In this document: positions 4,472-33,996 of the stretch, piece by piece
How positions within the stretch are numbered: position 1 is the stretch's first letter
How the letters are laid out: each line of letters begins with the position of its first letter
NCBI GenBank assembly: GCA_964359685.1
Contig: CAYHUW010000001.1
Span: 1 to 33,996 of the forward strand
DNA length: 33,996 nt
Source: an uncultured Candidatus Saccharibacteria bacterium
Lineage (GTDB): Bacteria; Patescibacteriota; Minisyncoccia; Phycocordibacterales; Phycocordibacteraceae
Direction: 5' to 3'
Made by a program: the position numbers and the translations under genes
Notes under the pieces: model-generated
Databases searched by the model: none
What the model was told of the DNA's origin: nothing
What the model saw: only the letters and a program-made list of their open reading frames with translations

Positions 4472-7420
4472 ATGGCGGACGGAGAGAAAAGCGATGTAGC
4501 CAAGCGGGCCGAGCCTACGCAGAAATCTGCTACGGCGGTCAGGGAGGAAGCGATACTCGCTTTTTGGAACGAGCGCGGGATTTTTGAAAAAACTCTCGCG
4601 AAGGACGCACCGAAAGGCGAGTACGTTTTCTACGACGGTCCGCCGTTTGCGACCGGCTTGCCGCACTACGGGCACGTCGTCGCTTCCGTTATTAAAGACG
4701 TCATACCGCGCTACTTCACAATGCGCGGGTACCATGTGCCGCGCGTGTGGGGCTGGGACTGCCACGGATTGCCGATAGAGAACATCGTAGAAAAAGAACT
4801 CGGCTTCAAGCATAAGAAAGAAATAAAAGAATTCGGCGTAGCGAAATTCAACGAAGCGTGCCGCGAGCGCGTTTTGACCTACGCCTCCGAGTGGGAGAAG
4901 GTGATTCCGAGAATCGGCCGCTGGGCCGATATGAAAAATGCATACCGCACCATGGACAAAACGTTCATGGAAAGCGTGTGGTGGGTGTTTAAGTCAATCT
5001 ATGACAAAGGACTGGTGTACGAGGATTACCGCTCCATGCACGTCTGCCCGCGATGCGAAACGACGCTCTCCCAGCAGGAAGTTTCCGAAGGGTATAAGGA
5101 TGTAAAAGATATTGCGGTAACGGTTAAATTTAAATTAAAGAATCCGGAGAAAATCGGTCTCTCGGGGGATGTGTATATGCTTGCCTGGACGACGACGCCG
5201 TGGACTCTGCCGGGGAACGTCGCGCTCGCCGTACACTCCGATATCGTCTATTCGGTAGTTAGAATCGGGGAAGAGGTTGTGATACTTGCGAGCGAGAAAC
5301 TCCCGATGCTCGGTGAGCGTGAGAAAAATCTTCTGAAAGAGGTACAAGGTGCGGACCTCGTCGGGCTTGAATATGAACCTCCGTTCCCGTACTACAAAAA
5401 TGATACGACTCTTAAGAATCGTGAAAACGGATGGAAGGTGTACCACGCTGATTTCGTAACGGCGGAGACGGGCACGGGAATTGCGCATGAAGCGCCCGCG
5501 TTTGGTGCGGATGACTGGGAACTTCTGAAAAAAGAAAATCTGCCGTTTGTTCAGCATGTCGCGTACGACGGCACAATGAAACCGGAAGTCACGGCATTCG
5601 CGGGGATGGAGGTGAAACCGCGTTCGGATGACGACAAAATCCGCCTCGGCACGGATATCGCCGTTCTCAAATATCTGCAGGAGAATAATCTGTTTTTCGC
5701 GAAAGAAAACATCACTCACGCGTATCCGCACTGTTGGCGGTGCGACACGCCGCTTTTGAACTACGCAACCTCTTCGTGGTTTGTGAACGTTACAAAAATC
5801 AAAGAGGGGATGCTCAGAAACGCACAATCAATCAACTGGTCGCCCGAACATGTAAAAGAGGGAAGGTGGGGACAGTGGTTGTCGGGCGCGCGCGACTGGT
5901 CTATCTCACGCCAGCGGTTCTGGGCGAGCGTCATTCCTCTGTGGGTGTGCGAGACATGCAAAGCAAAGCGGGTGTTCGGAAGTGCGCTTGAGCTTGAAAA
6001 AGCGAGCGGGAAGAAAGTAGACGATTTGCATAAACACATTGTTGACGAAATCACCGTATCTTGCGAATGCGGCGGCACCATGCGCCGTATTCCTGATGTT
6101 TTAGATACCTGGTTTGACTCGGGCTCCATGCCCTACGGAGAAAAGAACTATCCGTTTGTGAACAAGGAATCGTTTGACCAGACGTTCCCCGCGCAATTTA
6201 TCGCCGAAGGTCAGGACCAGACGCGCGCGTGGTTTTACTATCTCCATGTCTTGGCGAGCGCGCTTTTCAATAAGCCCGCGTTTCAGAACGTCATCGTAAA
6301 CGGCATCGTTCTTGCCGAAGACGGGAAGAAAATGTCCAAGAAACTTCAGAACTACCCCGATCCGATGAAAATCGTAGACACGTACGGCGCGGATGCCCTG
6401 CGGTACTACCTCCTCTCATCCCCGGTGGTACAGTCGGAAAATCTAAGTTTTGCGGAGAGCGGGGTTGATGAGGTGCTGAAGAAAAATATCAACCGTCTGG
6501 ATAACGTCGTCGCTTTTTACAAACTCTACGAAGACGGTACGAAGCGCGGAGCGGAGAGCGGAAATATTCTTGACCGGTGGATTCTCGCGCGCCTGAATGA
6601 ATTTCTTGCCGAAACGACTCACGGATATAACGAATACAAACTTGATAAAGCGGTACGTCCGCTCGCGCTTTTTGTTGACGATTTGTCCGTGTGGTATCTG
6701 AGACGAAGCCGCGATCGTCTGAAGAACGAGGGGGATGATAAAAAAGCCGCGCTTGCGACCTTGCGGCACATTCTCTACACGCTCGCCGCCGCCGTTGCCC
6801 CCGCGATGCCGTTTTTGGCGGATGATATATACCGAAAAGTAAAAGAGAGTGACGACCCCGAAAGCGTGCACTTGTGTAGCTGGCCGTATAAAGAGCCGGC
6901 GTTCTTTGAGCGGGTATTCGGCGGCGGTACAAAAACCGAAGGTCTTATTTCCGATATGGCGGAGGTCAGAAAAGTAGTTTCTCTGGGACTTGAGAAGCGT
7001 TCGGCGGCAAACATAAAAGTAAGACAGCCCCTGTCCGAGGTTCGGATACAGAGCGCCCTACTCAAAAATAAACACGACCTCATAGACCTCATCCGCGATG
7101 AACTCAATGTAAAGCGTGTGGCGGTTGACCCTACAATGGATAATGACATTGAACTCAACACGGAATTGACGGCTGAGTTAAAAGAAGAAGGGATGATACG
7201 TGACGTGCTCCGGTTTGTGCAGGACCTGCGGAAACAGGCGGGCTTCAGTCCGAAGGACCGGGCAATCTTGCGTATTTCCCCGAAAAACAGGATTTTCGTG
7301 GAAACGCACTGGACCGCGCTCGCAAAAACAGCGAATCTCGTGCGTTTTGAAGAAGGGGAGGCGGGCTCTGAACTTGTCGTGGATGGTGTGACATTTACAT
7401 TCAATGTCGAGCGGGCATAA
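4472..7420 (+). CDS. ileS: isoleucine--tRNA ligase
   Basis: 982 aa. Contains PHYGHVV (HIGH), KMSKK (KMSKS), DWSISRQRFWA, and the editing-domain and Zn-cluster regions. Confidence 0.95.
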   Translation: MADGEKSDVAKRAEPTQKSATAVREEAILAFWNERGIFEKTLAKDAPKGEYVFYDGPPFATGLPHYGHVVASVIKDVIPRYFTMRGYHVPRVWGWDCHGLPIENIVEKELGFKHKKEIKEFGVAKFNEACRERVLTYASEWEKVIPRIGRWADMKNAYRTMDKTFMESVWWVFKSIYDKGLVYEDYRSMHVCPRCETTLSQQEVSEGYKDVKDIAVTVKFKLKNPEKIGLSGDVYMLAWTTTPWTLPGNVALAVHSDIVYSVVRIGEEVVILASEKLPMLGEREKNLLKEVQGADLVGLEYEPPFPYYKNDTTLKNRENGWKVYHADFVTAETGTGIAHEAPAFGADDWELLKKENLPFVQHVAYDGTMKPEVTAFAGMEVKPRSDDDKIRLGTDIAVLKYLQENNLFFAKENITHAYPHCWRCDTPLLNYATSSWFVNVTKIKEGMLRNAQSINWSPEHVKEGRWGQWLSGARDWSISRQRFWASVIPLWVCETCKAKRVFGSALELEKASGKKVDDLHKHIVDEITVSCECGGTMRRIPDVLDTWFDSGSMPYGEKNYPFVNKESFDQTFPAQFIAEGQDQTRAWFYYLHVLASALFNKPAFQNVIVNGIVLAEDGKKMSKKLQNYPDPMKIVDTYGADALRYYLLSSPVVQSENLSFAESGVDEVLKKNINRLDNVVAFYKLYEDGTKRGAESGNILDRWILARLNEFLAETTHGYNEYKLDKAVRPLALFVDDLSVWYLRRSRDRLKNEGDDKKAALATLRHILYTLAAAVAPAMPFLADDIYRKVKESDDPESVHLCSWPYKEPAFFERVFGGGTKTEGLISDMAEVRKVVSLGLEKRSAANIKVRQPLSEVRIQSALLKNKHDLIDLIRDELNVKRVAVDPTMDNDIELNTELTAELKEEGMIRDVLRFVQDLRKQAGFSPKDRAILRISPKNRIFVETHWTALAKTANLVRFEEGEAGSELVVDGVTFTFNVERA

Positions 7421-17638: not shown

Positions 17639-18262
17639 ATGTCATTCCCTACCATTGCTCAAACCCCGTCTACGCGCTTTAGTATAGGAGTGCAGGACGA
17701 TTTTCGTACTCTTTCCGATGAGGCGCTTTTGGAAGTATCGGTCAAGAAACCGAGTGCTTTTGAGGCGATTGTAGCGCGCTATCAGTCGCAGTTCCTCTCC
17801 CGTGCTCAGGCGGTCTTGCGGGACCGCGACCGAGCCGAGGACGTGGTGCAGGAAACATTTGTCAGGATTTACCGTTTTGCTCCGCGCTTTAACGGTGAGC
17901 AGGGGAACTTCCGTTCCTGGTCACTGACGATTCTCATGAATGTCGCGCGCACACACTATTCAAAAACCGCGCGCGATCGCGGGCATACGGCACCATTGGA
18001 GCCGGAGCACTATGAATCACTCGCGGACAACAGTATCCACGCGAAAGAGGGGAATGAGGCATATGCAAAAGAAGTGATGGAGAAAGCGCTCGCCCGCGCG
18101 CCAAAAGAAACGGCTGACATTTTGAAATTGGCTTTCATAGAAGGACTTCCGCACGCGGAGATTGCCGAAAAGCTCGGCATATCAACGCCGGCGGTCAAAA
18201 CGCGCGTGCATCGCGCAAAGGCGGAACTGCGGACCATTATCAACGAGAACAATATTTTATGA
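17639..18262 (+). CDS. ECF-type RNA polymerase sigma-70 factor
   Basis: 207 aa. Region 2 is present (DRAEDVVQETFVRIYRF), as is the region 4 HTH (LPHAEIAEKLGISTPAVKTRVHRAKAEL). Confidence 0.85.
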   Translation: MSFPTIAQTPSTRFSIGVQDDFRTLSDEALLEVSVKKPSAFEAIVARYQSQFLSRAQAVLRDRDRAEDVVQETFVRIYRFAPRFNGEQGNFRSWSLTILMNVARTHYSKTARDRGHTAPLEPEHYESLADNSIHAKEGNEAYAKEVMEKALARAPKETADILKLAFIEGLPHAEIAEKLGISTPAVKTRVHRAKAELRTIINENNIL

Positions 18263-18387
18263 ATCCCGTTAGAGGGCAAAACATGTTACTGCGGCATTTA
18301 TATCAAAGTAAGCACTACGTAGGTCGGAGTCTCATTATTTCTAACTTTGTACGGACACCGCAGGTGTCCTACCTCTAACGGGATGAA
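18260..18387. mobile_element. 120-bp MITE-like element (TIR TCCCGTTAGAGG) with TGAA target duplication
   Basis: TGAA|TCCCGTTAGAGG (18264-18275) ... CCTCTAACGGGA (18372-18383)|TGAA. The termini match those of the GIY-YIG cassette at 20138-20417. There is an internal hairpin GGACACC-GCA-GGTGTCC. Confidence 0.75.
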
Positions 18388-18700
18388 AACCGACAAGCAG
18401 ATAACTGAAGGAATTATGCGCCGTGTGTACGGAGTGTATTTTATGCGCCGGCTTTCGCATCCTGCTGTGCGTCTCGGGGTGTTTCTTGCGCTACTTCTCT
18501 CGCTCCGCGAATTGGTGTGGGTTTCGCGTGTATTTGAAAATATGTCTCACAAAAACGGTGTCGTTGAATTCGTTCAGTACGGCATCTCTGCATTTGCCGG
18601 TACTGAGTTCATTGTGCAGCTCGTTGTCCTTATGGGTGCGTTCATTTTCGCCTACAGTATCAGAGACCTTTTCGGTCTCAGACAACCGCAATTCGCATAA
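18383..18700 (+). CDS. small membrane protein, candidate anti-sigma partner of the ECF sigma
   Basis: 105 aa starting at ATG 18383 (MKTDKQITEG...), with two predicted TM segments. The position downstream of an ECF sigma gene suggests the role. The ATG is rebuilt from the last A of the element plus the duplicated TG. Confidence 0.55.
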   Translation: MKTDKQITEGIMRRVYGVYFMRRLSHPAVRLGVFLALLLSLRELVWVSRVFENMSHKNGVVEFVQYGISAFAGTEFIVQLVVLMGAFIFAYSIRDLFGLRQPQFA

Positions 18701-18701
18701 C

Positions 18702-18730
18702 AAAAAAGCCCCGCACAAGCGGGGCTTTTT
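18702..18730. terminator. bidirectional rho-independent terminator
   Basis: AAAAAAGCCCCGC, ACAA loop, GCGGGGCTTTTT. It lies between convergent genes, the membrane protein (+) and recA (-). Confidence 0.8.
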
Positions 18731-19762
18731 CTATAGTCCTTCCGCCAGTTTGGCGCGGATCTGTTTCAGAAGGTCGTTCGCGATTGGTTTGTTTTCCCTC
18801 AGGAACGTGCGGGTGGCGTCGTACCCGACCGCGAGTTTTTGTTCTCCCATTTTGTACGTGGAGCCGCTTTTCGCCACGAGGCCGAATTTTTCTCCGAGCG
18901 CAATCAACTCGCCCTCGCGGGAAATGCCCTCGTTGTACATCAGATCAAACTCGGTAGCCTTGAACGGTGCCGCCACCTTGTTTTTTACCACCTTCACCCG
19001 CACGCGTCCGCCCACTACTTCTTCGCCTTTCTTAATCTGCGCGATACGGCGGATATCAAGACGCACGGATGTGTAGAACTTCAGCGCCTTGCCGCCGGGC
19101 GTTGTTTCGGGATTGCCGAACATCACGCCGATTTGCATACGGATTTGGTTGATGAAAATCACCACTGTTTTTGAACGCGCAACGATTGCCGTCATTTTGC
19201 GAAGTGCCTGCGACATCAGCCTGGCCTGGCGTCCGACGTGCTGTGCACCCATGTCGCCTTCAATTTCCGCCTGAGGCGTAAGCGCGGCGACTGAGTCAAT
19301 AACAATCACATCAATCTTTCCTGAGCGAATCAAAGACTCCGCAATGTCCAGGGCCTGTTCTCCCGTGTCCGGCTGCGACACCAGAAGATCATCAATTTTT
19401 ACGCCGAGACGCTTCGCATATTCCGGGTCAAGCGCATGTTCCGCATCTATAAACGCACACACGCCGCCTTTTTTCTGCGCTTCCGCGGTGATGTGGAGGG
19501 AAAGAGTCGTCTTACCCGAAGATTCAGGACCGAAAATTTCTATAATGCGACCGCGGGGGACTCCGCCGATTCCGAGCGCGGCATCAAGTCCGATGGAACC
19601 CGTCGGGATAGCGTCAACGCCCGTTTTCGGGCGCATACCGAGCGTGGTTATCGCTTCGTCACCGAATTTTGTTTTGATTGAGGCGATTGCGTCGTCTATC
19701 GCGGTTTTTTTATCAGAGGAGGGTGCCGGTCGGGGTTCTTTTTCAGTTTTCTTCTTCGCCAT
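18731..19762 (-). CDS. recA: recombinase RecA
   Basis: 343 aa. Contains GPESSGKTT (Walker A), [10 protein letters not shown] and the L1/L2 loop regions. Confidence 0.97.
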
Positions 19763-20138
19763 AATTCGTGGTTGTTGTCGCTTGGGCTATAACAAAGGTA
19801 ATTGTTTTTGTAATGGTTCGGCCGAAACGGTCGCGACCGACTGCCGTGACTGCAGTATACCCTTTAGGGTACGCGCGCATAACTTCAAAACTCCCGTCCT
19901 CGTCAACGGCAACCTCGTCACCGTTTATGGTGAGGTAGGAAACCCGCTCAGTGTCGCCGTATAAAGCCGTTAAGCCGTTTTTCGGAGCGTACGAGAGCGT
20001 CAATGTCGGACCCCTAAGGTACGGGTACGCGGCAAAGAGGGCATACCCGAGAATGAAGAGGACGGCAAACGCCCCACCGGCTATGCTCAGTGTTTTTCTG
20101 CCGTCGCTCTCCCCGCCGATATTTTGGGGGAGTTTCAT
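19743..20138 (-). CDS. single-pass membrane protein, hypothetical
   Basis: 131 aa with a TM helix ([23 protein letters not shown]). The start ATG overlaps the GIY-YIG stop (ATGA), and the 3' end overlaps the recA start by 20 nt. Confidence 0.6.
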
Positions 20139-20421
20139 CCCGTTAGAGATAGGAAACGCTTCAGTCTGGTTTTCAAAAAGCGTTTACCTGGTCCCGATTT
20201 AAGATATAACTCTCTCGACCTTGCATCCTGCTCATTTTTGCACGATTCATAATAGATGAGTTCGTATGGGCCACGTTTTCTAGTCCACGTGCTTTTGTCC
20301 GCTTGGTGTTGAGTGAAGCGTTTCCGTAAATCATTTGTGTACCCGGTGTACCAATAACCACTTTTCATACTTCGAATAATATACACATAGAACCAACGGC
20401 TCGAATCTCTAACGGGATTCA
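20134..20421 (-). mobile_element. TIR-bounded GIY-YIG cassette with TGAA target duplication
   Basis: On the plus strand: TTCA|TCCCGTTAGAGAT (20138-20150) ... ATCTCTAACGGGA (20405-20417)|TTCA. The 13-nt inverted repeats are perfect and the flanking 4-nt repeats are direct. The element body is 280 bp. Confidence 0.75.
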
Positions 20422-20422
20422 T
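20135..20422 (-). CDS. GIY-YIG nuclease family protein (small stand-alone URI-domain type)
   Basis: 95 aa. Contains FYVYIIRS...GYWYTGYTNDLRKRFTQH and ELIYYE...R.RE..LK, which fit the GIY-YIG core. It has ATGA overlaps with both neighbouring genes. Confidence 0.85.
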   Translation of the reverse strand: MNPVRDSSRWFYVYIIRSMKSGYWYTGYTNDLRKRFTQHQADKSTWTRKRGPYELIYYESCKNEQDARSRELYLKSGPGKRFLKTRLKRFLSLTG

Positions 20423-21105
20423 TCCACTCCTTCGGTGTCGGTGCTCTTGCCCGACACCGTCAATACATCCCGCGGACGTGCGCCGTCCGCGGGGCCGATG
20501 ACACCCCGCTGCTCAAGAATGTCCATGAGCCGCGCCGCTCTCGCGTATCCGATTCTGAGTTTTCTCTGGAGGTACGACGTGGATGCTTTCCCCGCCTCCT
20601 CTACCGTCTGTTTTGCTTCTTCAAACAAGTCGTCTTCCGCCTCGTCGTCTTCAAGAGACGCGGAGAATATCGGGTTCGGCGTCTCCGACGTCGTGCCTGA
20701 AAGCGCAATGCCGTCAACCGAGGGTTCGTTGTTTTTCCGTATGTAGTCAACAACCGCCTTTACTTCATTTTCCGAAATATATGCCGTCTGAATACGGTGC
20801 GGTTTCGGCATGTCCGCCGACTGGTAGAGCATGTCGCCTGCGCCCAGAAGTTTTTCCGCTCCTGCGGCGTCCAAAATGGTGCGTGAGTCAAATTGAGAAG
20901 CGACCTGAAGCGCGATCCTCGCAGGCACGTTCGCTTTAATGAGGCCCGTAATAACATTCACCGACGGGCGTTGGGTGGAAAGGACGAGATGAATGCCGAC
21001 CGCGCGTGACATCTGCGCAAGCCGCACGACCGCCGCCTCCAGTTCCCTCGGATACGTCTGCATGATATCCGCAAGCTCGTCTATAACGATTACGATGTAG
21101 GGCAT
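20419..21105 (-). CDS. ftsK: DNA translocase FtsK/SpoIIIE, C-terminal fragment (Walker B, gamma wHTH)
   Basis: Contains YIVIVIDELADIM, LVLSTQRPSV and the C-terminal gamma domain STSYLQRKLRIGYARAARLMD. The frame stays open upstream to 21189. Confidence 0.85.
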   Translation of the reverse strand: MPYIVIVIDELADIMQTYPRELEAAVVRLAQMSRAVGIHLVLSTQRPSVNVITGLIKANVPARIALQVASQFDSRTILDAAGAEKLLGAGDMLYQSADMPKPHRIQTAYISENEVKAVVDYIRKNNEPSVDGIALSGTTSETPNPIFSASLEDDEAEDDLFEEAKQTVEEAGKASTSYLQRKLRIGYARAARLMDILEQRGVIGPADGARPRDVLTVSGKSTDTEGVE

Positions 21106-21189: not shown

Positions 21190-22596
21190 CTACAAGAGGT
21201 TATAGCGTCGCTCCATCTCTTTAGCCGCCCACTTCAGAGAAATAATAGCCTTCTTCGGGTCGGTAATGACCGGCGTCAGAAGGTGGGGGATGGGGTTGTA
21301 GAGGGTCAGTTCAACCCGTTTCGGGTCAATCATAATAAACCGGAGTGATGCGGGGCCGTTTCTGTAGAGAAGCGATGTGATAAGCGCGTGAATCGCAACC
21401 GATTTCCCCGAGCCGGTAGCGCCCGCGACCAAAAGGTGCGGCATTTTTCCGATATTGGCGAAGTGCGAATTGCCCGCAATGTCGCGGCCTAATGCCACGG
21501 TAAGGGGTTTCTGATCCGTCTGGAATTTTGTGTCGCTTATGAGTGAACCGATTCCGACCGTTGCCTTCTGCGTGTTCGGCACCTCAATCCCCACCAGCGA
21601 TTTTCCGGGGATCGGAGCCTCTATGCGGACAGGCGCGGCGGCAAGCGCCAACTCCAGGTTATTTTGAAGTGCAAGAATTTTCTGAAGGCGCACTCCCTCC
21701 GCGGGCTTCAGTGCGTACCGCGTGACGGTGGGGCCGATAGATACTTCATCCATCTCAACATTGATGCCGAAATTCTGGAGGGTGCGTTTTATCAGGTTCG
21801 CGCTCGCTTTAATGTCGCCGGTGTCGGGTTTTCCGCGGTCGCCCTTCAGGAGGGAAGTCGGCGGCGGATTGTAGGCGCGGTCAACGGGTCTGAATGCTAT
21901 TGCGGAGACCTCCACCTGCGGAATCGGTTCGGGTTTCTTTTCTTTTTTCTGTCGCGAAATTTCGCGGGCGGGCGTTTCCGCGTTGTCTTCGTCTTCCCCG
22001 GCGGTTTCTTCATAGGTATCTTCGTACGCGCCCGTAACGGTGAGTTCTTCTTCCGGTACCGCGGCGTCTTTTCGTTTCAAGAATTCGGGGAAGGCGAGCG
22101 AGGGGAATTTCAAAGGCGTATCAAGCGCCAAAAGCGCACCCACAACCGCGAGTCCCGAGAGGATGATGAATGAAAATACGTAATCAAAAGGGTACAGGAA
22201 GAGCGAGGCGATGAGTTTACCCGCAAGCCCGCCCTGATTTCCTGCAAGCGAGAGAACCGAAATCCCGGACAAAAAGAGCAGAGCGGCTCCGATGACGCGC
22301 GTACCGCCCCAGCCCGTCTCCGGGTTCTGTCTGAAAAAGCCGATAGCGAGCGCAACGAAGACCAGCGGAATTAAAAAATATCCGAGCCCGAAAAGTCCTG
22401 AAGAGCCGAGGGATGTGTAGACCCATTCGCCGAGCCTGCCGCCGATGCCCATCGGAGCCAAAAGAAAGAGAACGGCGACAATAATTGAGAGGACGCCGTA
22501 AATGCTTTTTGCGGTTTCCTGTTTTACGTCGAGCGAGGGGGCTTTGAGGAGAGGTTGGTTCTTTTCCTTGTGCTTCCGTTTCGTGTTTTTCGCCAT
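21190..22596 (-). CDS. ftsK: DNA translocase FtsK/SpoIIIE, N-terminal fragment (TM region, linker, Walker A), ends at an in-frame TAG
   Basis: The likely start is ATG 22596 (MAKNTKRK...). It has four or more TM helices, VAGATGSGKS (Walker A) and KWAAKEMERRYNLL followed by TAG at 21190-21192. Confidence 0.85.
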   Translation of the reverse strand: MAKNTKRKHKEKNQPLLKAPSLDVKQETAKSIYGVLSIIVAVLFLLAPMGIGGRLGEWVYTSLGSSGLFGLGYFLIPLVFVALAIGFFRQNPETGWGGTRVIGAALLFLSGISVLSLAGNQGGLAGKLIASLFLYPFDYVFSFIILSGLAVVGALLALDTPLKFPSLAFPEFLKRKDAAVPEEELTVTGAYEDTYEETAGEDEDNAETPAREISRQKKEKKPEPIPQVEVSAIAFRPVDRAYNPPPTSLLKGDRGKPDTGDIKASANLIKRTLQNFGINVEMDEVSIGPTVTRYALKPAEGVRLQKILALQNNLELALAAAPVRIEAPIPGKSLVGIEVPNTQKATVGIGSLISDTKFQTDQKPLTVALGRDIAGNSHFANIGKMPHLLVAGATGSGKSVAIHALITSLLYRNGPASLRFIMIDPKRVELTLYNPIPHLLTPVITDPKKAIISLKWAAKEMERRYNLL

Positions 22597-22640
22597 AGGT
22601 ATTGTCGTTTTGTATGCGGATTTTATCATGGCAAGCGAGG

Positions 22641-22786
22641 AGCAACATGAAAGGGTGCTTTCATGTTGTCCGAGTGACGCCATGAGAAGCCTACTTACCA
22701 CGGTGAGTGAGGAGCGACGCGAAAGATTTTCTTTCATGTCGTCCGAACGACGCCGTGAAAAGCACCGCTAAGCACGACAGTCGGTG
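22641..22786. repeat. tandem ~73-nt duplication, each unit a hairpin plus a conserved tail
   Basis: CTTTCATGTTGTCCGAGTGACGCCATGAGAAGC (22658-22690) versus CTTTCATGTCGTCCGAACGACGCCGTGAAAAGC (22731-22763). Each is preceded by its complement, CATGAAAG or GCGAAAG. Confidence 0.7.
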
Positions 22787-29149: not shown

Positions 29150-29300
29150 GCTATTTGGACTTTCGTTTGGTACTCTAGCGGGAGCACGACTGGAGACAGT
29201 AGGTCCCGAAAGGGGTAATGAGCGAAAGCCGCCTGCCGAAGTCGAAAAAGGTTTAAGGTCGAATCCTTTACCCAGCCCGTGCTCACACGGGTTTTCTTTT
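29150..29300 (+). promoter_or_regulatory. rplJ leader region ending in an intrinsic terminator (attenuator candidate)
   Basis: About 150 nt of GC-rich structured sequence upstream of rplJ. Its terminator is CCCGTG CTCA CACGGG TTTTCTTTT (29276-29300), about 25 nt before the ATG. Confidence 0.5.
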
Positions 29301-33308: not shown

Positions 33309-33996
33309 GGTTTTCAAGCTTCCTCGCGGAAGTTTGAAGGGTGTATGGTGGATGCCTTGACTTTAAAAGGCGATGAAGGACGCAGCACGTCTGCGAAAAG
33401 TTTCGGGGAGCTGACGAGCAAGCTTCGATCCGAAAATATCCGAATGGGGAAACCCCTCGTACTTCGTACGAGATCTGTGGAGTGTTCTGCAGATGCGCAC
33501 CTCGGGAAGTGAAACATCTCAGTACCGAGAGGAAAAGAAACCAACAGTACATCTCGGTCTCTGCACAAATTTATTTTGTACAGGGACCGGGATTCGGGAA
33601 TTTCCCTAGTAGCGGCGAGCGAAAAGTAATCAGCCCAAACCGTATCAGCAAGGGTGCGGGGTTGTAAGGCGATGGCGTTCCATTTTATGGAAGAGAAGTT
33701 ATCAAAGATATTGGTAGAAGAATCTGCTGGGAAGCAGAACTCTAAAGGGTAATAGTCCCGTATTCGAAATCAATATCTCTTCTTTGCCGTCGATCTTGAG
33801 TAATCCGAGACACGAATAGCTTGGATGAATCCGCCGGAACTAACCGGCAAGGCTAAATATCTTTAAAGATCGATAGTGAACCAGTACCGTGAGGGAAAGG
33901 TGAAAAGCAGCCCGGAAGGGCGGTGAAATAGATCTGAAACCATATGTTTACAAGGAGTCGAAGCGGTCGCAAGACCTCGCCGGCGGGCCTATTGAA
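33309..33996 (+). rRNA. rrl: 23S ribosomal RNA, 5' domain I (partial, continues beyond the window)
   Basis: Conserved blocks are present in the correct order: GGTGGATGCCTTG, GCGATGAAGGACG, CCGAATGGGGAAACCC, GGGAAGTGAAACATCTCAGTACC, CCTAGTAGCGGCGAGCGAA, GATAGTGAACCAGTACCGTGAGGGAAAGGTGAAAAG and GTGAAATAGATCTGAAACC. Confidence 0.92.

Follow-up and report, generated by a model that had tools for sequence, protein, structure and literature searches.

A 120-bp insertion between a sigma-factor gene and its neighbour points to a family of small, start-codon-associated elements in Patescibacteria

We analysed a stretch of 33,996 nucleotides from an uncultured Candidatus Saccharibacteria bacterium (contig CAYHUW010000001.1 of assembly GCA_964359685.1, referred to hereafter as the window, or the 34-kb window), in which the gene for an extracytoplasmic function (ECF)-type sigma factor is separated from the gene that follows it by a 120-bp element bounded by terminal inverted repeats (TIRs); we call this element the mini. 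The sigma factor is a 207-residue member of the sigma-70 family (Pfam Sigma70_r2, 7.7e-15; Sigma70_r4_2, 1.3e-13; Sigma70_ECF, 3.1e-5), and the gene downstream encodes a 105-residue protein with two hydrophobic segments (two transmembrane spans). An initial annotation, made from the letters alone, had presumed this second protein to be an anti-sigma factor, an identity left unsupported by Pfam and NCBIfam, neither of which returns a match. The features of the locus, including the open reading frames (ORFs) and the two copies of a target site duplication (TSD), are as follows.

17639-18262, forward strand: gene for the ECF-type sigma-70 family factor, 207 aa
18259-18263, forward strand: captured host start codon plus two nucleotides, ATGAA (target logo of the family, A-T-G-R-A)
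18260-18263, forward strand: left TSD copy of the mini, TGAA, read from the sequence
18259-18378, forward strand: relay ORF (MNPVRGQNM...VSYL), 39 codons, opening at the captured ATG and closing at a TAA that lies 4 nt short of the rebuilt ATG
18264-18383, forward strand: the mini (TCCC...GGGA), 120 bp, absent in the syntenic relative L123; mini profile E = 3.9e-14
18264-18275, forward strand: left TIR of the mini, 12 bp, TCCCGTTAGAGG, exact reverse complement of 18372-18383
18353-18369, forward strand: subterminal hairpin GGACACC-GCA-GGTGTCC, with a conserved ACGG before it and 2 nt between it and the right TIR
18372-18383, forward strand: right TIR of the mini, CCTCTAACGGGA, which holds the relay-ORF stop TAA (18376-18378) and whose last base is A
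18384-18387, forward strand: right TSD copy of the mini, TGAA, read from the sequence; with A18383 it makes the rebuilt ATG (18383-18385)
18383-18700, forward strand: 105-aa host protein MKTDKQ..., two hydrophobic segments, ORF from the rebuilt ATG

To the left of the mini the window reads ...AACAATATTTT-ATGAA and to its right TGAA-AACCGAC, with 96 nt between the two TIR 12-mers. The sigma stop codon (TGA, 18260-18262) overlaps the captured ATG (18259-18261); at the other end the element closes with an A, such that A18383 and the TG of the duplicated tetranucleotide rebuild an ATG and the host ORF continues. The ends, repeats, flanks and hairpin had been described in this form by the initial annotation and are all borne out by the sequence, as are its regenerated downstream ATG and its short internal ORF ending within the right TIR (39 codons, closing at 18376-18378); the relay ORF has no family match in Pfam or NCBIfam. 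The TIR 12-mer is present at four ends only in the window, those of the mini and those of a second element, a cassette encoding a GIY-YIG nuclease, and a TIR search combined with the mini profile finds a single mini. A further 12-mer match with two mismatches (TCCCGCTAGAGT, 29172-29183) has no nearby partner and no profile match, and is probably due to chance. The predicted fold of the mini is stable, both as RNA (minimum free energy −44 kcal/mol, z = −4.6) and as single-stranded DNA (ssDNA; −22 kcal/mol, z = −3.6). A promoter/terminator scan called no outward promoter or terminator inside the mini; Rfam 15 gave zero matches, at the gathering threshold or at E ≤ 10, to 18260-18387 and 20135-20422, and near the mini it returned terminator-like matches only, at 18700-18760.

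The 120-bp stretch is an insertion. A relative, L123 (JACCDV010488867.1), found by a protein-guided scan of metagenome contigs and carrying a sigma factor 82% identical to that of the window, has the gene order EF-P, sigma, 105-aa protein, RecA, membrane protein, FtsK and lacks the 120 nt: its sigma/partner junction is uninterrupted, the sigma TGA overlapping the partner ATG (AACAATATTTTATGAAAACAG, also written AATATTTTATGAAAAC, AATATTTTATGAAAACAG and TTTTATGAAAAC). Excision of the mini from the window would be expected to leave AATATTTTATGAAAACCGAC; an uninterrupted junction of this kind was predicted by the initial annotation, which had proposed aligning the locus to relatives as the check. 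The site of the GIY-YIG cassette is also empty in L123, where the FtsK TAA is followed by 10 nt and then by the ATGAAG of the membrane-protein gene, placing the target of the full-length element at the downstream start codon and not at a stop/start overlap. Filled and empty junctions were read directly, pairwise MAFFT alignments being messy through divergence. The identical mini is found in three independent assemblies of one groundwater well (the window, L001/L139 and L140), and is thus fixed in that groundwater population.

A census with the exact pattern TCCCGTTAGAG-N80-110-CTCTAACGGGA, run over one genome per species (596 Gb), returned at least 120 further loci with elements of 100–132 bp, against a chance expectation that we estimate at about 2. 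The census covered exact 11-mers at 80–110-nt spacing only, so its counts are lower bounds biased to minis; gene calls at these loci are crude, and data from metagenome-assembled genomes (MAGs) preclude whole-genome copy counts. Among the matches listed, nearly all fall in MAGs of the ultra-small Patescibacteria, the Candidate Phyla Radiation (CPR): Paceibacterota, Saccharibacteria, Yanofsky-, Kaiser-, Wolfe-, Nomura- and Harrisonbacteria, and others. Genomes other than that of the window carry 2–3 minis within 8 kb, some of them near-identical. The patterns for mini and full-length elements gave 0 matches in 2.9 M viral contigs. A few pattern matches carry the labels Elusimicrobia, WOR-3 and Gammaproteobacteria (L022:4658-4764, L033:1170-1281, L026:3715-3832); those in L022 and L033 have GC-rich interiors and lack ATG/TG flanks, and may be chance, while that in L026, on a contig of 8 kb, has the typical form of a mini and may reflect a binning error or a transfer.

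A TIR census had been put forward by the initial annotation as a check, and the copies it yields are associated with ATGRA. The census bears directly on whether the locus might be explained by an inverted repeat that arose by chance, or by an intrinsic terminator of the ordinary kind lying between the two genes. To meet one 12-bp inverted repeat within 150 nt would not be wildly improbable in 34 kb, but the same ends recur at four window positions and at a minimum of 120 loci elsewhere, L123 has an empty site, and the stem has no T-tract after it and no terminator called there. We give this account practically no credence, the census and the empty site between them ruling it out.

The insertion sites share a start codon. 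A perfect 4-bp duplication flanks 88 of the 130 copies (TGAA 53, TGGA 16, TGAG 8), and the reconstructed empty sites are informative at five positions only, A-T-G-R-A, with TGRA duplicated; TGAA is duplicated at both elements of the window, in keeping with the identity of target at the mini and the ftsK junction claimed by the initial annotation. The base before TG (position −5) is A in 79 cases, G in 6, T in 3 and C in 0, a profile that resembles start-codon usage and not that of a recognition base; the right junction reads ATG even where the left flank is GTG, so that the A is part of the element and only 4 bp are duplicated. An ATG is rebuilt at the right end in 117 of 131 copies. The ORF that begins there reaches 60 codons or more in 108/131 (82%) and 100 or more in 97, whereas random ATGs of the same loci open one of 60 or more in 27%; inner members of tandem arrays account for several of the exceptions. 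ATGA overlaps hold only 15/131 (the upstream gene lies 1–30 nt away in 51, and there is no nearby upstream same-strand ORF in 39), which identifies the start codon, and not the stop/start overlap, as the target. The host genes at the insertion sites are mutually unrelated.

A tolerance-only model, in which elements insert at any TGRA and survive outside genes or at starts, would place ~8% of copies at starts (with crude gene calls), and an estimated ~20% would lie there were ATGRA the recognised site; the excess at start codons is real, and roughly tenfold. Orientation is also fixed, the hairpin-bearing end pointing toward the host gene in 92 copies and away from it in 3, where the symmetry of the outer TIRs means that either orientation would rebuild the ATG. 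As to the translation of host genes and elements, a Shine-Dalgarno-like motif (GGAG, GAGG, AGGA or AAGG at −16 to −4) precedes only 6/131 targeted starts (loci L002-L121), and the 20 nt upstream of captured starts are merely A/T-rich.

Judged by their sequences, minis move as minis. One locus (L036) holds two minis 90 nt apart, with interiors 98% identical and different flanks, and another (L101) holds two at different sites with interiors 91% identical; the background identity of mini interiors is 52% (95th percentile, 60%). Elements have also entered the ATGAA rebuilt by an earlier element, giving tandem arrays with TGAA between members: L034:5472-5711 comprises two tandem minis, and L006:5898-6279 is a three-element array before one host gene, with TGAA between each. 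The middle member of the latter (~6023-6155) is bounded by another TIR (TCCCGTAGTAG...CACTACGGGA), from which it follows that sister families with other ends exist.

The second element of the window lies on the reverse strand and has the following features.

20138-20417, reverse strand: full-length element, 280 bp, read from the sequence; its 13-bp TIRs, TCCCGTTAGAGAT / ATCTCTAACGGGA, enclose GIY-YIG coding sequence only
20135-20422, reverse strand: GIY-YIG nuclease ORF, 95 aa (MNPVRD...RFLSLTG); Pfam PF01541, E = 1.4e-16, residues 11-76
20418-20421, reverse strand: left TSD copy of the full-length element, TGAA, read from the sequence
20134-20137, reverse strand: right TSD copy of the full-length element, TGAA, read from the sequence
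20311-20325, reverse strand: 5′ half of the long-range stem, GGAAACGCTTCACTC (LRKRFTQ codons), an inverted repeat with 20152-20166, 93% complementary
20152-20166, reverse strand: 3′ half of the stem, GACTGAAGCGTTTCC (RLKRF codons), abutting the right TIR and homologous to the 3′ half of the mini hairpin
19743-20138, reverse strand: 131-aa membrane protein MKLPQN..., the targeted host gene; an ORF whose L123 ortholog has 127 aa (MKPLTQ...)

The cassette ends, ATGAATCCCGTTAGAG ... CTCTAACGGGATGAAA, are the ends of the mini, as the initial annotation had noticed for the two loci, and the whole reads ATGAA/TCCCGTTAGAGAT...ATCTCTAACGGGA/TGAAA. The GIY-YIG ORF sits between the 3′ part of ftsK and the gene for the 131-aa membrane protein. 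Because the element proper begins at TCCC, the ATG of this ORF (20422-20420) is the captured host start codon; the ORF ends GGA-TGA, its TGA (20137-20135) overlapping the rebuilt ATG (20138-20136). The 13-bp TIRs lie inside the ORF and supply the codons for both termini of the protein, whose second residue tracks the duplication (MN, MS, MT, MG or MR). Two further full-length copies, L130 and L133, also measure 280 bp from TCCC to GGGA, and have identical ends, ATGAA at the left, TGAA at the right and an ATGA overlap with the host gene.

Homologs of the GIY-YIG protein number more than 2271 at 90% clustering, mostly of 94–95 aa, and a profile search gathers 3180 clusters (50% identity) at E ≤ 1e-10. 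Among the best 120 of the >2271 homologs (the set to which all counts out of 120 refer), the N-terminal MNPVRD is present in 75 and the C-terminal FLSLTG in 107. An exact-protein look-up found neither the window GIY-YIG protein nor the 131-aa membrane protein on record, and tblastn against plasmids gave YazA-like matches only. Comparison of the GIY-YIG core between the window, L130 and L133 gives proportions of nonsynonymous (pN) and synonymous (pS) differences of ~0.2 and 0.6–0.8, respectively (synonymous sites being saturated), which places the protein under purifying selection. At the nucleotide level the first 18 nt of these three copies are identical (18/18), the last 27 nt match at 25–26 of 27 positions, and the middle is 63–70% identical; termini that are near-invariant against so diverged a middle indicate that the ends are constrained as DNA. 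The AF2 model (predicted local distance difference test score 87) is a plain single GIY-YIG fold in which the TIR-encoded residues 1–6 are predicted to be disordered, and the nearest solved structures are UPF0213 BH0048 (1zg2, E = 3.7e-9) and, by Foldseek, Slx1.

Beside the captured start, the element may have another that it brings along itself. AGAGG/AGAGA at the close of the left TIR resembles a Shine-Dalgarno sequence (window 18270-18286; L130:2511-2530; L133:2511-2530), and an in-frame ATG lies 6–11 nt past it, at codon 9 of the mini ORF or as Met10 of many GIY-YIG homologs; in 16/120 homologs Met10 is the annotated start. Position 10 of the window protein is Trp where many homologs have Met, leaving the window copy without this alternative start. 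A few GIY-YIG representatives (P0129, P0130, P0132, P0169) measure 200–655 aa, their nuclease domain being N-terminal or nearly so, and may be read-through fusions with the host gene (through a duplication without TGA) or gene-calling artefacts.

We compared mini and full-length architecture across ~130 oriented minis, which measure 100–132 bp (mean 118). The outer 11 nt of the TIR are fixed by the search pattern in all of these copies; the repeat is 13 bp long family-wide, since positions 12–13 covary (A-T 94 vs G-C 23, and T-A 65 vs C-G 56), and position 14 is unpaired. Inside the right TIR come a T-R-Y linker and then a stem with a conserved ACGG before it, closed by a 3–4-nt loop in about half of the copies. 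A perfect 7-bp hairpin is present in 63/130 minis, compared with ~7 in chimeric controls; 72 distinct stem sequences occur, and RNAalifold on 51 copies finds 20–23 compensatory double changes per stem pair. There is a second class of minis in which the 3′ half-stem, CGCGACC, pairs just inside the left TIR and so lengthens the terminal stem. In full-length elements the 3′ half-stem CGTTTCC (KRF codons) abuts the right TIR and pairs either locally or with GGAAACG... (LRKR codons) ~145 nt upstream; this long-range stem covaries among the window, L130 and L133, and is also present in the centroid ssDNA fold of the full-length element.

The hairpin raises the alternative of an RNA-level device, in which the folded insert would serve as a translational regulator, or as an element spliced or bypassed at starts, and the DNA features would be secondary. 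The insert always lies within transcripts, at start codons and in fixed orientation, its RNA fold is stable (−44 kcal/mol, z = −4.6) and its hairpin covaries, all of which such a device would explain. Rfam, however, has zero matches to it even at E ≤ 10, a ribozyme-like conserved core is absent, and 4-bp duplications with empty sites denote DNA integration; mismatches of G-U type and A-C type within the hairpin are about equally frequent (G-T 20 vs A-C 15), the enriched open relay ORF described below argues that ribosomes read through the insert and do not skip it, and Ssn-type GIY-YIG nucleases are inactive on RNA. We regard an RNA-level device as highly improbable.

Searched with the mini profile, full-length elements give collinear matches over their first ~110 nt and their last ~38 nt (TIRs included), such that minis look like full elements without the ~160 nt between the half-stems. 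The initial annotation had seen no similarity of the mini interior to the GIY-YIG gene, which is roughly right for sequence but wrong for architecture, given the shared stem and the collinear profile: an interior-only nucleotide profile of minis scores weakly against full-length interiors (5.8 bits), and in searches of mini translations with the GIY-YIG profile the TIR-encoded MNPVR alone contributes, making that comparison uninformative. The same annotation had the mini as a derivative of the neighbouring cassette, and here it needs amending. TIR position 12 is G-C in the window mini and A-T in the window GIY-YIG copy; the two are of different subtypes, and the mini is hence a family-level relative of its neighbour rather than its derivative.

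Collinearity would also be expected if this mini were an in-place remnant, that is, if a full element at the sigma/partner junction had lost its central ~160 bp and never moved as a mini. The site is of the type used by full-length copies, and the relay ORF is still in the frame used by the nuclease for its N-terminal part, both of which suit that account. It sits badly with the uniform size and architecture of ~130 minis (mean 118 bp, 3–4-nt loop), with near-identical minis at different sites and with the tally of 140+ minis to 1 full copy in the sampled loci (a sampling that is biased to minis); in addition, the G-C pair at TIR position 12 is present in 23/130 minis, and the corresponding MNPVRG in none of the best 120 full-length homologs, which have MNPVRD. 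Local decay of this sort is in our judgement quite improbable.

How ribosomes would pass such an insertion is suggested by its reading frames. Among minis with a left ATG, the distance between the two ATGs is in the frame of the TIR TAA in 43/87 (other frames, 23 and 21), and the relay ORF is open, to the TIR TAA or an ATGA overlap, in 27/87, compared with 6.3 in interior shuffles (maximum 14 in 500); the relay peptides are unconserved beyond their TIR-encoded ends. We envisage that ribosomes would enter at the captured ATG, end at the rebuilt ATG and reinitiate on the host gene, so that the chain at the window locus would run from sigma through the 39-codon ORF to the 105-aa protein. The concern of the initial annotation that the insertion changes coupling between the two genes is a reasonable one, but coupling is probably relayed rather than broken, via a 39-codon ORF whose stop lies 4 nt short of the rebuilt ATG; the chain is intact at this locus, whose layout seems made to keep the two genes coupled, and the relay between the sigma gene and its co-translated partner could still alter their stoichiometry. 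Among the best homologs of the GIY-YIG protein an MD start, expected from a TGGA duplication (which would provide no TGA), occurs in 0/120, though TGGA is duplicated in 16/88 minis; full copies, this suggests, depend in some way on the ATGA overlap.

The reading that we favour, with a probability of roughly 0.7, is that the 120-bp stretch is a non-autonomous member, resembling a miniature inverted-repeat transposable element (MITE), of a CPR-wide family of small elements whose autonomous form is the 280-bp GIY-YIG cassette. The mini has the structural attributes of a MITE, being small and without a transposase gene, having TIRs, a TSD and an empty site, and sharing its ends with a coding element. 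Elements of the family are integrated directly behind base five of a host gene (ATGRA), with TGRA duplicated. The GIY-YIG protein, we propose with moderate confidence, would recognise the TIR stem and the adjacent hairpin in ssDNA and cut at the stem base on both sides; minis would be served in trans by this protein, and host enzymes would join the ends. We infer ssDNA-end recognition from the covariation of the ends, from a protein without a DNA-binding domain, from the Slx1/UPF0213 folds and from the behaviour of Ssn nucleases, to which we return below.

Several points weigh against this reading. In the many samples that contain it (204 index blocks for P0040, 43 for P0006), each full-length variant examined occupies a single genomic context, so that no recent jumping of full copies is seen. 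GIY-YIG nucleases hydrolyse DNA, and we know of no strand transfer by them; the transposition chemistry set out above is a proposal throughout. The difference in TIR subtype makes trans-mobilisation of the window mini by its GIY-YIG neighbour uncertain, and the equal numbers of G-T and A-C mismatches single out neither strand, and neither RNA nor DNA, as the folding molecule. The roughly tenfold excess at start codons comes without a mechanistic explanation: no internal position covaries with the duplicated dinucleotide as an IS608-like guide would (best p 0.03, 82 tests). Internal stops in 60/87 minis mean that the relay ORF is not obligatory. Finally, the detectable relatives of the GIY-YIG protein are UPF0213/YazA-like rather than demonstrably Ssn, and the SRM consensus of the Ssn system (HGTCWY N0-2 YYVSBRH N0-5 WNVSBRG N0-2 RNCYNB) matches 0/130 minis on either strand and neither element of the window.

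A bolder form of the favoured reading takes the 280-bp cassette for a transposon that is autonomous in full and much smaller than any other known, with GIY-YIG as a new class of transposase acting on folded ssDNA ends; it would possess neither promoter nor ribosome-binding site nor start codon, would integrate specifically at host starts, borrow host initiation for its expression and return ribosomes via ATGA, and minis would be its parasites, gene starts having been colonised CPR-wide. We advance this tentatively, at somewhat worse than even odds. To our knowledge the GIY-YIG fold is not represented among prokaryotic transposase families, and there is a fair chance that the family constitutes a new class of transposon.

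Various known systems resemble the family in part. MITEs and their parent insertion sequences (IS), such as Correia elements and IS630/Tc1-type MITEs, are likewise small, with TIRs and a TSD, without a transposase gene, sharing their ends with a coding element and present in multiple copies within transcription units; here, in contrast, the putative parent measures only 280 bp and encodes a GIY-YIG protein instead of a DDE, HUH, serine or tyrosine transposase, insertion is specific for start codon and orientation, and the interior contains a selected hairpin. IS200/IS605 elements, which move as ssDNA by 'peel and paste', and the REP/BIME-RAYT system share selected subterminal hairpins, strict orientation to a short target, tiny size and non-autonomous hairpin derivatives near genes. 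IS200/IS605 elements use an HUH Y1 transposase and have no TIRs and no target duplication; membership of that group was rejected, on account of the TIRs, the 4-bp duplication, a GIY-YIG and not an HUH protein and the lack of guide-like covariation.

Neisseria intergenic mosaic elements (NIMEs), units of 50–150 bp (RS) bounded by dRS3 repeats and intergenic in location, are similar in their ~100-bp units, in inverted repeats of the form ATTCCC...GGGAAT (here ATCCCG...CGGGAT) and in tandem arrays next to genes; we know of no target duplication or start-codon location for them. Phage GIY-YIG homing genes (Seg proteins, I-TevI relatives) place a nuclease gene between host genes, often overlapping start/stop codons, as the cassette does. 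Homing enzymes of this type have an extra DNA-binding domain and a long specific target and spread by recombination repair, with no TIRs, duplications or minis; a 95-aa single-domain protein, unrelated sites sharing only ATGRA, and TIRs with duplications led us to reject that assignment. In sequence and fold the 95-aa protein comes nearest to UPF0213 (B. halodurans BH0048, B. subtilis YazA, E. coli YhbQ) and to Slx1. The latter, a structure-specific nuclease on branched DNA, has extra domains and needs a partner protein, and UPF0213 genes are, as far as we know, host genes in single copy that lack TIRs.

Of the systems described so far, Ssn/SRM (cd10448, GIY-YIG_unchar_3) comes closest. Like the CPR family, it has a single-domain GIY-YIG protein of ~94–95 aa without a DNA-binding domain, whose gene is bracketed by inverted, hairpin-forming repeats that also occur elsewhere without the gene, oriented and near genes. 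The CPR repeats differ in being 13-bp TIRs inside the ORF, with 4-bp duplications and with start codons captured and rebuilt, none of which is reported for Ssn, and the CPR family also has 120-bp derivatives of defined architecture. Ssn nucleases recognise their oriented hairpin repeats solely in ssDNA, where they bind them and cut alongside (PMC11893778); the authors describe Ssn as a host function in transformation control, remark on its IS-like architecture and speculate on an IS-like origin (Chenal et al, 2025, Nat Commun; PMC11893778), and the CPR is unmentioned in that paper (PMC11893778).

The Ssn precedent (NTS-ssnA-NTS, hundreds of repeats near genes, an effect on transformation) lends itself to a reading of the CPR family as a domesticated hairpin-repeat system, in which a host Ssn-like ssDNA nuclease would have the 120-bp units as its recognition sites (compare NTS/dRS3-NIME and REP/BIME), kept at gene starts for the cell, for example for the control of recombination/DNA uptake or of expression. 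Ends that are extremely conserved across very divergent CPR lineages, full-length variants that each keep to one locus across many samples, a mini fixed in three assemblies from one groundwater site and an excess at start codons that neutral transposition would hardly produce are all consistent with this. Against it stand signs of ongoing mobility, namely duplications, empty orthologous sites, tandem self-insertions and near-identical dispersed copies, together with host genes that are unrelated from site to site and the absence of the SRM motif from minis. We consider domestication unlikely, while noting that it and mobility are not mutually exclusive.

The element family is apparently undescribed: literature searches by TIR and peptide strings, and by the topics GIY-YIG, CPR, MITE and transposase, found no description of the element, and one Hainich paper merely names a GIY-YIG domain protein among transferred genes. 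If the favoured reading is right, the family would represent a design of mobile element not described before, in which gene and element are coextensive, and it would be common throughout a very large section of the bacterial tree about which little is understood; with the host start taken over and rebuilt, insertion may be nearly harmless. Gene callers applied to CPR genomes would misplace starts, or call spurious 95-aa/40-aa genes, at hundreds of loci. Start-codon specificity poses the testable question of how a DNA element finds translation starts, and small nucleases that are sequence-specific and structure-dependent are of biotechnological interest, as has been argued for Ssn.

Two other features of the window deserve mention. 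The ftsK gene upstream of the cassette (ORFs 21190-22737 and 20419-21105) is broken by one in-frame TAG (21190-21192, reverse strand; ...RRYNLL*GHSVRDIH...). The same codon is GAG (Glu) in L123, where the gene is intact, and TAG is an ordinary stop elsewhere in the window (12/42 long ORFs), so that the ftsK TAG is either a site of read-through, a nonsense mutation or an error of sequencing. Lastly, positions 33325-33996 contain the 5′ part of a bacterial 23S rRNA gene that is cut short where the window ends (Rfam LSU_rRNA_bacteria, 432 bits).

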